Both the position numbers and the translations under genes were made by a program. This document shows, in pieces, positions 57,033 to 60,060 of a stretch of 64,000 nucleotides of DNA. Position 1 is the first letter of the stretch. Every line of letters begins with the position of its first letter. The notes under the pieces are model-generated. The model saw nothing but the letters and a program-made list of their open reading frames with translations. It did not search any database and was not told the DNA's origin. Origin of the DNA: a virus (lineage: Duplodnaviria > Caudoviricetes); IMG/VR virus record IMGVR_UViG_3300029998_000597, one strand, 5' to 3'.

Positions 57033-57392
57033 ATGAAAAAATGTAAATTAACAATACCACCAGGACAGGAATGGATAGTACTAATCGATGATGAAGAAGC
57101 ATTAGCTAACCCAGGGGAAATATTTTTAACATTTATTAAACCATGTAATGACAAAACATGTTTTAATGAGATAAGTGGATGGATTAATAGTTACTGGCCA
57201 GGATATATATTCAGCAAACGAAAGGAAGGAGTTCCATACAAACGAGACGTTGCTAAAAATGTTCAATTAGAAGATTATGAGACTGAAAATAAGAATAAAA
57301 TAGTTTTTAATAATGCATATTTTAATAATGCTCATAAATTTTCTTTAGATAAACCGATGTTAATAGTATATGATTACTATATTTATATGTAA
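57033..57392 (+). CDS. Hypothetical protein
   Basis: 119 aa. Confidence 0.7.
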   Translation: MKKCKLTIPPGQEWIVLIDDEEALANPGEIFLTFIKPCNDKTCFNEISGWINSYWPGYIFSKRKEGVPYKRDVAKNVQLEDYETENKNKIVFNNAYFNNAHKFSLDKPMLIVYDYYIYM

Positions 57393-57408
57393 AAAATAAA
57401 AATTTTCG

Positions 57409-57418
57409 CTATTTATAA
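57409..57418 (+). promoter_or_regulatory. Putative late promoter
   Basis: CTATTTATAA preceding the structured leader. Confidence 0.5.
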
Positions 57419-57430
57419 TAGAATAATAAA

Positions 57431-58456
57431 ATTGAAACCTTGTGATTGAAAAGCTAACGTATAAAATATTAATTTTGGTGCGTTAAGTTGGGGTGATAAT
57501 CCAACAATTAGTTTTTCAAATAAAATAATAAATAAAAATAATAAGGAAAATGATTACAAATTCCAAAACAATGGGTAATGCTTGTCCAGTCGCATATATT
57601 GCAGCAAATAAGCAGCGGATTAAACAATATGTTAATAATGTTGTTTACCTGAAGAATAAAAACAATTTCGAAATTGAGTTGTTTAATCCAACACAATTCA
57701 AAGTTCTCGCCACGATTGAACTAAATGGGGTTTCAATAGGCTCTGGAATCATTTTAAGGCCAGCAGAGCGAGTTTTTCTTGAAAGGTATATAAATGAACC
57801 TAAAAAGTTTTTATTTGAAACCTATGGGGTAGAAGGTGAAAACAACGAAGTTATTAAAGCAATAGAAAAGAATGGATTGGTAAGGGTTAAATTCTATAAA
57901 GAATCTATTTTCGCACCAAATATTTCTTGGGGTTCTTTCGAAATTCCAGAAAGAATAATATATGGTGGTCCGCACATAGAAGATAATATTACTTGGCTTG
58001 ATGGCTCAAAATTGACAAATTTTAATCCTTTATTTGGCAGTGCGATAACAACAAGTGCCAGTTGTTATTATAATTCAACAGGATATAATGTGGAAATGGG
58101 ATGTCAAGAACCTAACGGTACGTTAACCGTATCAGGTAATTTAATTTTTAATTCATCAACGGGTGGCCAATCAACCAATTCATTACATTCTAAAAAATCA
58201 ATTGAAACTGGGAGGGTTGGAGAAGGTTCTGATTCTGACCAGAGATTTAACACTGTCGATACCAAATTTGAGATGTTTCATACTTGGAGTAGTGAGTGGA
58301 AACTATTACCAGAATCAAGGAAATTGGTGGTAGCCGAAGATTTGGTTCTTTTTTGTTCTGGGTGTGGTCGACGCTTTAAAACAAAAGAACGCTTTTGTCC
58401 ATCCTGTGGATCTAAAAAATAAATAAAATATATATTATCAATTACAAGGTTTAAAT
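57431..58456 (+). repeat. Inverted repeats flanking one gene
   Basis: AAACCTTGTGATTGA (57435-57449) pairs with TCAATTACAAGGTTT (58438-58452), one G-U. Confidence 0.75.
57550..58422 (+). CDS. Hypothetical protein with C-terminal zinc ribbon
   Basis: CSGCG..FCPSCG at C-terminus. Confidence 0.8.
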   Translation: MITNSKTMGNACPVAYIAANKQRIKQYVNNVVYLKNKNNFEIELFNPTQFKVLATIELNGVSIGSGIILRPAERVFLERYINEPKKFLFETYGVEGENNEVIKAIEKNGLVRVKFYKESIFAPNISWGSFEIPERIIYGGPHIEDNITWLDGSKLTNFNPLFGSAITTSASCYYNSTGYNVEMGCQEPNGTLTVSGNLIFNSSTGGQSTNSLHSKKSIETGRVGEGSDSDQRFNTVDTKFEMFHTWSSEWKLLPESRKLVVAEDLVLFCSGCGRRFKTKERFCPSCGSKK

Positions 58457-58464
58457 AAATTAAA

Positions 58465-58510
58465 AAATGGCTACTGAAATATAAAATTTTCGGTAGCCAT
58501 TTATTTTTTT
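58465..58510 (+). terminator. Intrinsic terminator
   Basis: AAATGGCTACTGAAA/TTTCGGTAGCCATTT plus T run. Confidence 0.8.
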
Positions 58511-58635
58511 ATTATTGTTGGTAAAACCCAACGTTAAATATGATTTTTGGTGTTAATGTTGGGTTAAACCAATGTTATTATCAACATATTTGCATTGTTA
58601 TCATATGCTGTGATAATGGTGCAAAAACTATGATA

Positions 58636-60060
58636 TTATAGGTATTTATTTATTAATTCCAATGCTTCATCTTTTGTTAAATCTGGATTTTCATACCAGG
58701 CATCTTGAATAACATCTAATAGTTCACCCATAAAAGGTGATGGCTTAACACCTAATCCAATTAGGTCACTCCCATTAATTGGTAAGTTTCTATTTGAATT
58801 ATTTATTTTAGAAGATAAATTATCAATTCTATCTCTAAGAATACCTATTTGATTAGGCATTGATGCTTCAGCTGTATGCGATATATTATCGGCGTGAATC
58901 AAGTCCAAAACCTGTTCGATATTATCACCAACAGTAGCTTTAAACTTTCGTAATGTTTTATCTAATAATTTATTTCCGTCATCACCGCCTTGTTTTAAAT
59001 ACATATGATTTTTAACTCCGCAAGCAACTATATCGATTATATCATTAGAATATTTTAAACGACTCATTATAGATCGCACTAATACTTCACTTTCTTTCTC
59101 ATGCCCCAAGAAATGAACTTCACCATTTTCGTCTATCGTTTTAGTAATAACCTTACCAATATCATGAAATAAAGCCATTAACCTTGTTTCCAAAACAGGA
59201 GGAGTATTATCCAGTACAGACATAGTATGTCCGAATACATCATTAATATGATATTTATTTTGTTTCATCCCAATAGTAGGGATTAACTCTTCAACAATAT
59301 AAGGTAATAGCCCAGTAACTTTCAATAACCGAATACCTTTAGCTGGATTATCAAATAATAATATTTTATTTAATTCGTCAGAAATACGTTCATTTGAAAT
59401 ATTATTTAACAAATATGCATTGTTTCTCATTACACGAATAGTATCTAAATCCAACTTGAAATTATATTTAACTGTAAACCGAACTGCGCGAAGCATTCTT
59501 AACCCATCCTGTTTAAATATTTCATCTGCATTTGATGTTGTTCGGATGATACCATTTTTAATATCATCGATACCATAACCAGTTAAATCAAGTATTTCAT
59601 TTGTTGAAACATTTTTTAGTAAAGAGTTGATTGTCAGATCACGACGAGAAACATCCACCTTTAAATCACCACCTACCACATCTGGTTTTCTTGAGTTAAT
59701 ATTATTATATGCTTCAGCCCTTGGAGCAACAAATTCTAAATCAATATTTGGTAAATTGAATACATTGTTATTTAAAGATAATTTTGAAGTTCCAAAACGT
59801 GGATAAATAACAGGATTTGAGTCCTCTTTATAATTGCCCAACTTGTTAGCAAGCCAAAATGAAAAGTTAATACCAGCATTGATATCTCCGTTAACTACAA
59901 AGTCAAGATCTTTAGCTGCCTTTCCCATCAACTCATCTCTCACTGCCCCGCCCGCCAAATAGATATTATTATCGTATTCGGTTCCAGCTATAAGATTTTT
60001 TAGGAAATCCAAGACTTCTTGTTCAAGTGTTCCTTCGGTTAAAACTTTTTTAATACTCAT
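58636..60060 (-). CDS. cca: CCA-adding tRNA nucleotidyltransferase with HD domain
   Basis: AGGAVRD, DLDF, EFVAPR, RRDLTIN, DGLRMLRAVRF, SNERISDEL, FHDIGK. Confidence 0.9.
   Translation of the reverse strand: MSIKKVLTEGTLEQEVLDFLKNLIAGTEYDNNIYLAGGAVRDELMGKAAKDLDFVVNGDINAGINFSFWLANKLGNYKEDSNPVIYPRFGTSKLSLNNNVFNLPNIDLEFVAPRAEAYNNINSRKPDVVGGDLKVDVSRRDLTINSLLKNVSTNEILDLTGYGIDDIKNGIIRTTSNADEIFKQDGLRMLRAVRFTVKYNFKLDLDTIRVMRNNAYLLNNISNERISDELNKILLFDNPAKGIRLLKVTGLLPYIVEELIPTIGMKQNKYHINDVFGHTMSVLDNTPPVLETRLMALFHDIGKVITKTIDENGEVHFLGHEKESEVLVRSIMSRLKYSNDIIDIVACGVKNHMYLKQGGDDGNKLLDKTLRKFKATVGDNIEQVLDLIHADNISHTAEASMPNQIGILRDRIDNLSSKINNSNRNLPINGSDLIGLGVKPSPFMGELLDVIQDAWYENPDLTKDEALELINKYL

Follow-up and report, generated by a model that had tools for sequence, protein, structure and literature searches.

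The window, a 64,000-nucleotide stretch of DNA, comes from a 147-kb IMG/VR virus record of about 28% G+C for which no DNA similarity to deposited phages was found. The segment studied here contains a single gene on the + strand, encoding P0001. The predicted fold of this protein comprises an Ig-like beta-sandwich, made up of the N-terminal 120 residues and the C-terminal strands, a disordered linker rich in Ser, Thr and Asn, and a basic, Lys/Arg-rich zinc ribbon. A protein search returned more than 1000 relatives forming a virus-specific family, none of known function; those with a named source occur only in the Lak megaphages of Prevotella and in other huge phages (460-735 kb), at 26-37% identity, and some relatives carry a SHOCT domain in place of the zinc ribbon. 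For P0001, Pfam yielded sub-threshold zinc-ribbon matches only, PHROGs no match, NCBIfam and a PDB sequence search nothing, Foldseek against the PDB only weak Ig-like matches, and the Atlas only virus clusters of unknown function. In the window (57550-60060), and in four homologous loci whose flanks were fetched (L004, L010, L012 and L014), the gene stands at the end of a + strand block and faces a convergent gene. The convergent neighbor encodes a CCA-adding enzyme in the window and in L014, while DUF5661 and NAPRTase genes occupy this place in L004.

The P0001 gene is bracketed by two complementary arms, which together would form a helix that we call P1 (Table 1). An inverted repeat enclosing only this zinc-ribbon ORF had been claimed in the original prediction, and both direct reading (core arms AAACCTTGTGATTGA and TCAATTACAAGGTTT) and a repeat search returned it at the same coordinates, the search giving arms of 22 nt (57431-57452 and 58435-58456) with 86% complementarity. 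The 15-nt core consists of 14 Watson-Crick pairs and, as its sole flaw, one G-U pair on the + strand; 18 of 19 positions pair in the 19-nt extension if the G-U is counted, so that both counts of the prediction were reproduced. P0001 is indeed the only gene inside, and the announced terminator follows the 3′ arm, whose end lies 8-12 nt ahead of the terminator stem.

Table 1. Positions of the features in the window
Feature	Position	Strand	Remarks
Promoter-like motif	57409-57419	+	from alignment; putative promoter
5′ arm of P1	57431-57449 (core 57435-57449)	+	at or a few nt after the probable transcript start
Leader domain	57446-57519	+	RNAalifold and pair counts; three helices, directly 3′ of the 5′ arm
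P2	57446-57457 with 57508-57519	+	encloses hairpins P3 and P4
P3 hairpin	57456-57461 with 57479-57484	+	inside P2
P4 hairpin	57487-57491 with 57501-57505	+	inside P2
Motif AUAAGG	57541-57546	+	3 nt before the ATG; candidate alternative partner of the 5′ arm
ORF P0001	57550-58422	+	290 aa; Ig-like beta-sandwich, linker, C-terminal zinc ribbon
3′ arm of P1	58435-58456 (core 58438-58452)	+	begins 12-15 nt past the stop codon
Intrinsic terminator hairpin	58465-58502	+	15-bp stem, A-run before, T-run after

In this one sequence, taken by itself, chance could account for the repeat. The window contains 60 inverted repeats of equal quality (15 nt, at most one mismatch, spacing of 100-2000 nt) vs. 38.9 ± 6.1 in dinucleotide shuffles, and five vs. 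2.0 expected in the subset with at least 5 G/C in the arms. Within the 147-kb record, P1 is the sole intergenic-to-intergenic inverted repeat with real G+C content, and its arms are the highest-scoring gene-flanking complementarity among the 190 genes; only 14 of these 190 attain the same flank-match score, nearly all with AT-only matches. We considered whether a closing helix might be a general habit of this phage's genes, and rejected the idea as no other gene has comparable flank pairing.

The promoter-like motif upstream of the 5′ arm reads CTATTTATAAT in the window; homologs have TATAyTTAT or TATATAAAT at its place, often with TTTACA 17 nt upstream. The prediction had called this sequence a late motif: it is present where claimed, on the + strand, but is not enriched (17 found vs. 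14 expected in the window). A scan with the sigma-70 consensus gave no useful information, the stretch being AT-rich. Solid pairing in P1 begins about 7-8 nt past the -10-like hexamer, i.e. at the presumed +1. At the other end, the terminator is probably bidirectional, since an A-run precedes it and a T-run follows. In many loci, the terminator of the upstream gene lies ahead of the promoter-like motif, and in L028, L030, L038, L045, L051, L080 and L082 an intrinsic terminator (GGGAAGT...ACTTCCC plus a T-run) stands directly before it, so that the gene looks monocistronic, with a transcription unit of its own. From the promoter-like motif and the terminator, we infer that both arms are contained in one transcript.

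Conservation and covariation of the P1 helix

Homologous loci were assembled from close relatives obtained by exact protein look-up (56-69% identical) and from two IMG/VR sets of 80 loci each, gathered by alignment-based scans; these succeeded where an IMG/VR scan with the single protein gave no matches. P1 was located in each locus as the stretch where the 5′ flank best matched the 3′ flank by Watson-Crick pairing. Its two arms occupy equivalent positions in about 115 distinct homologous huge-phage loci (proteins 38-69% identical), in nearly all of them 90-105 nt ahead of the ATG and 7-16 nt (about 11) past the stop codon, with the 3′ arm just ahead of the terminator. The Watson-Crick core has a median length of 12 bp and typically measures 9-19 bp.

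We measured covariation in subfamily A on a sequence-only MAFFT alignment (A3) of about 68-69 distinct full loci and 16 P1 pairs. Pairing was observed in 85% of the cells vs. 76% in shuffles, and double-sided changes in 14 of the 16 pairs vs. 7.0 ± 1.0; none of 500 shuffles attained any of the four measures used, and pairing fell to 31-45% in slid registers. Typical columns contain GC33/AU32, AU35/UA15, AU14/UA12/GC12 or GC41/UA12/GU8. The counting script gave numbers identical to those of the pair-count tool on alignment A2. Subfamily B, with 40 distinct arm pairs built on a GTTAAC core, behaved similarly (e.g. CG22/UA6/AU6/GC3), with 0 of 2000 shuffles as high as observed. In some loci the arms have been replaced outright with complementarity kept, as in L060 (TAGAGCCTGAAA / TTTCAGGCTCTA), L102 (TTTATAGCTGTTCG / CGAACAGCTATAAA) and L180 (ATCGTGATTGA / TCAATCACGAT); the GTTAAC class is a further replacement whose arms are still complementary, giving at least four in all. 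Folding of the whole transcript (1085 nt) placed P1 in both the MFE and the centroid structures.

Conservation and covariation of the arms had been named beforehand as the check on which the prediction could fall, and the arms withstood it. The proposed reading as a closed-loop mRNA is supported by arms at the same place, compensatory changes and arm replacements in about 115 loci, and this conservation with covariation makes it the best reading of the repeat. The comparative data thus argue that P1 is very probably a real element acting at the RNA level.

Several features bear on the strand concerned. Transition-type mismatches in the interior of P1 appear as G-U on the + strand in five contexts vs. 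A-C in two (strict flanks), a modest excess, and further wobbles include the common GGUU/AAUC pairing and three G-U pairs in L012. The 5′ arm lies between the promoter-like motif and the leader, and the 3′ arm between the stop codon and the terminator. Throughout the aligned loci the promoter-like motif precedes the 5′ arm, and inverted copies were not seen, a constant orientation that argues against an invertible segment. Together, the G-U lean, the placement of the arms, the monocistronic look of the gene and the fixed promoter orientation point to P1 acting as + strand RNA.

In some subfamily B loci the 3′ arm seemed to be missing; the ORFs there stop at a TAG or have an apparent frameshift, so our stop calls for them are probably wrong. 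The homologous ORFs of L112, L140 and L143 end at a TAG with no 3′ arm behind it, that of L076 has an in-frame TGA, and that of L122 an apparent frameshift ahead of the zinc ribbon. This suggests stop-codon recoding or assembly errors in these contigs. Stop-codon recoding is known for Lak phages.

A structured leader and a candidate partner at the start codon

The comparison of homologs brought out two parts that go beyond the original prediction: a structured leader beside the 5′ arm, and a putative third pairing partner before the start codon. The leader consists of helix P2 and the two hairpins within it (Table 1). On the 5′ strand, P1 runs into P2 without an intervening unpaired base, and the outer part of P2 shares the sequence UUGA with the inner end of P1. 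In the alignment, 92.6% of the leader cells paired vs. 74.3% in shuffles and 15 of 18 pairs showed compensatory changes, values matched by none of 500 shuffles. Unpaired bases are also strongly conserved, namely UUGA between P3 and P4, GAA past P4, and those of the P4 loop. Searching with a covariance model built on the leader (R1) gave a single match in the 147-kb record, located in the 5′ UTR of the P0001 gene, and further matches upstream of the subfamily B homologs and in the huge phages LR756504, LR756502 and LR756501, the last of which had been left out of the training. Comparison with Rfam (cmscan, 57300-58700) revealed no family near threshold, the best match (29 bits vs. a cut-off of 55) covering the terminator on the opposite strand. 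We also discarded, on visual inspection, a hammerhead-like interpretation of the leader junctions, as the core bases do not fit.

The candidate third partner, AUAAGG, has its complement in the 5′ arm (CCUUGU) and is similar to ACAAGG in the 3′ arm; the family keeps this motif 2-7 nt ahead of the AUG. In subfamily B, the motif before the AUG is AAAGUUAA, a sequence complementary to UUAACU in that subfamily's 5′ arm and the same as its 3′ arm core. The start motif thus changes with the core of the 3′ arm from class to class (AUAAGG/ACAAGG, AGUUAA/AGUUAA and UCAGGU/UCAGGC). In L060, GCCUGA of the 5′ arm faces UCAGGU, in L014 ACAAG replaces UAAGG, and in L102 and L165/L180 the pairing with the 5′ arm spans the AUG itself. 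In folds of the 5′ UTR alone, most of the loci tested had the 5′ arm paired to the start region; when the 3′ UTR was added to the fold, the arm moved from the start region into P1.

The class A arms pair with their own start regions at -6.2 kcal/mol vs. -2.35 with those of class B, and the class B arms at -4.2 with their own vs. -3.0 with those of the other class. Ranked against 189 start regions of the own genome, the cognate percentiles were 0.016-0.10 for four class A arms and 0.20 for L014, 0.04-0.43 for class B, 0.005 for L060, 0.058 for L102 and about 0.10 for L165/L180; most arms lay between 0.005 and about 0.15, binding their own start region better than the bulk of those in the genome. 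A Fisher combination over these five classes, which were chosen after seeing the data and whose helices are short, gave about 1e-3. The alternative helix measures 5-8 bp (-4 to -9 kcal/mol) and is AU-rich in class B, where two to three variants are at background. P1 is the stronger of the two in 115 of 115 loci (about -15 vs. -4 to -6 kcal/mol). The alternative helix does not vary within class A, where covariation between the 5′ arm and the start region beyond 6 bp was not significant; because of this invariance, the support for a switch derives from the comparison between the approximately five classes.

Two further points need to be weighed. First, AUAAGG in class A could simply be a Shine-Dalgarno-like site, and L098 retains TAAGGA with no clear CCUUG arm. 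The class B start motif cannot be a Shine-Dalgarno site. Only 8 of the 190 called genes of the 147-kb record have a Shine-Dalgarno-like core upstream, and the sequences ahead of the genes are rich in A and contain about 6-8% G, a Bacteroidota-type initiation pattern that is consistent with kinship to the Lak phages of Prevotella. Second, a switch does not account for the function of P2-P4, which counts against it.

In L104 and most subfamily B loci, the region of the 5′ arm (TACGTT AACTC AACGTA) can also form a local hairpin of 5-6 bp. It may represent a further metastable alternative at the extreme 5′ end, which would resemble the transient hairpin in the 5′ region of hok mRNA.

A proposed closed-loop control and its alternatives

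We propose that P1, a helix of 12-19 bp under selection, joins the 5′ end of the mRNA to the stretch between the stop codon and the terminator, and would so close a monocistronic megaphage message of about 1 kb into a loop stacked on the P2-P4 leader. The 5′ arm would have two mutually exclusive partners, the motif of the start region (5-8 bp) and the stronger 3′ arm. In nascent or 3′-truncated RNA, it would sit on the start region and keep ribosomes off; once transcribed, the 3′ arm would capture it (about -15 vs. about -5 kcal/mol), exposing the A-rich start region and hiding the 5′ end in a helix. A 5′ end buried in this way would probably also slow end-dependent decay. The outcome would be that translation is licensed solely on complete, intact transcripts.

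We consider a closed loop with a start-masking switch on a stacked leader to be the best explanation of the data as a whole, with a probability of roughly 0.55. For the three-partner switch taken by itself, in which the folding order and the effect on translation are presumed, we see the odds as about even, whereas a contribution of end protection through a presumed effect on decay is compatible with the switch and rather probable. The widest version of the proposal is more tentative, and we would put it somewhat below even odds: a prokaryotic closed-loop checkpoint in which the start is masked by default and unmasked only by the message's own 3′ UTR, with the leader as a new RNA class and possible sensor of a ligand or protein. 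If this were true, ribosomes would be admitted only to complete transcripts that still have their 3′ end, and the family would offer a natural, sequence-rich case in which to study how the ribosome could learn from a bacterial or phage mRNA that the message is complete, in hosts that apparently do without Shine-Dalgarno pairing. A single helix spanning about 1 kb and kept across a huge-phage gene family of more than 1000 members provides an unusually clear covariation record, and flags an abundant, uncharacterized megaphage protein as probably under tight post-transcriptional control.

Some of the same evidence would suit simpler roles. P1 might be a passive panhandle that conceals the 5′ end, and keeps hold of the 3′ UTR, as a protection from end-dependent RNases with no switch involved, as the start of its well-paired part at the probable +1 would suggest. 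A precedent exists in the hbs mRNA of B. subtilis, where a 14-bp pairing that links the 5′ UTR to the 3′ UTR can control RNase access (PMC5737220). The hbs interaction differs from P1 in having no sequence or structural homology to it, in overlapping an RNase Y site and in a model that has no alternative partner at the start region, and the loop formed here is about three times longer. A passive panhandle leaves unexplained why the start motif is complementary to the 5′ arm and changes with the arms between classes, and a local 5′ hairpin would be a cheaper way to protect an end. We therefore regard this explanation as unlikely.

Gene-flanking stems that are cleaved by RNase III, usually of at least 20 bp, occur in rRNA operons and as the stalks of T7 early mRNAs, and RNase III usually needs roughly 20 bp. 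P1 could be a processing stalk of this kind, perhaps stacked on P2, that trims the ends and leaves a stable mRNA. The layout is the same in that a whole gene is flanked by pairing 5′ and 3′ sequences, P1 adjoins P2 such that a stack of about 21-28 bp would result, and the length of P1 is held at 9-19 bp. P1 alone, on the other hand, is below about 20 bp, exceeding this length only if stacked on P2, and processing does not explain a start motif that copies the core of the 3′ arm; we regard a stalk as unlikely too.

The junction of P1 with P2-P4 might instead be a protein-binding platform, possibly for the encoded zinc-ribbon protein itself, in a form of autogenous control. Such a role would give a reason for the strongly conserved unpaired bases of the leader, which pairing alone does not explain, and the Lys/Arg-rich zinc ribbon of P0001 would suit it. 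Sequence and structure searches with P0001 found no RNA-binding fold or family, however, and some relatives carry SHOCT instead of the zinc ribbon; a platform of this type seems improbable to us.

Lastly, the arms could act as DNA, as invertase or recombinase sites or as terminal repeats of a mobile cassette, with the RNA pairing incidental. Exactly one gene lies between the repeats and the downstream neighbor differs in close relatives, as this idea would have it. It is opposed by the fixed orientation of the promoter-like motif described above, by arm sequences that are wholly different between clades yet complementary, by the lean to + strand G-U pairs and by a third complementary partner at the start codon, and scans of the neighbors (Pfam, PHROGs) turned up no recombinase; we rejected an invertible segment or transposon terminal repeats on the grounds of motif orientation and missing recombinase, and hold any DNA role to be very improbable. 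A chance inverted repeat in AT-rich DNA, which the ordinary single-sequence statistics would have allowed (60 vs. 39 expected), is refuted by conservation and covariation in more than 100 loci and has a practically negligible probability.

Related systems and neighboring sequence elements

The element is very probably an RNA control element not described before; it belongs to the known class of 5′/3′-UTR interactions, to which it adds a leader with no Rfam match. Its closest precedent, by analogy, is the hok mRNA of plasmid R1 and its relatives, whose 5′ tac element pairs with either the 3′ fbi element or the internal box ucb, a transient 5′ structure preventing co-transcriptional translation and the state of the 3′ end setting translatability (PMC9841398). 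The likeness to hok/Sok lies in the pairing of 5′ end with 3′ end within one mRNA, given that P1 is conserved, covaries and appears in the whole-transcript fold. It might extend to a second, internal partner of the 5′ element that sets access to the start site, a point on which we observed complementarity in five classes (combined p about 1e-3, short helices). The logic would be reversed, since the closed, full-length form of hok is silent and 3′ trimming activates it, whereas the closed form is proposed to be the translatable one here. Moreover, hok ORFs encode tiny toxins under the control of an antisense RNA, while our element surrounds a 290-aa ORF of a huge phage, carries an extra three-helix leader and showed no antisense partner. 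With a beta-sandwich and zinc-ribbon ORF of this size and no evident antisense unit, the element is better viewed as an analogue of hok than as a member of that group.

In the aapA1/IsoA1 system of Helicobacter pylori, long-distance 5′-3′ pairing and metastable co-transcriptional structures reportedly control the availability of the start site. Folding of the mRNA would decide access to the start site in both cases; aapA1/IsoA1 differs in concerning small toxin genes under antisense control, with an inert full-length form, on a bacterial chromosome rather than in a phage. The 3′ UTR of Staphylococcus aureus icaR is said to pair with the Shine-Dalgarno region and to repress initiation. Pairing of anti-RBS sequences has been found to work over hundreds of nucleotides in vivo in B. 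subtilis (PMC12697547). What these cases share with the P1 element is a distant sequence of the same mRNA that pairs with the ribosome-binding region; there, the 3′ or distant element is the repressor, while the 3′ arm is proposed here to be an anti-repressor of a repressor located at the 5′ end. The likeness to retron a1/a2 sequences raised in the original prediction goes as far as inverted repeats around a transcribed unit and did not hold further: no RT was found when the ORF and the genes next to it were scanned against Pfam and PHROGs, there is no msr/msd-like layout, and a normal protein gene is enclosed.

The P3 loop in the window has a 10-nt insertion absent from close relatives. A segment comprising the P3 loop and the start of P4 (57464-57492, AAATATTAATTTTGGTG..GTTGGG) recurs after the terminator (58536-58564, AAATATGATTTTTGGTG..GTTGGG), where two GTTGG..CCAAC-like hairpins make up a larger palindrome (58502-58588). 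Further downstream, a 13-bp hairpin (TGCATTGTTATCA ... TGATAATGGTGCA; 58592-58625) is kept in L004, L010, L012 and L014 despite the differing convergent neighbor gene. Two to three of its pairs are G-U only on the + strand, with an A-C at one of them in L010; from these + strand-only G-U pairs, the hairpin may be part of a read-through transcript or a separate + strand RNA element.
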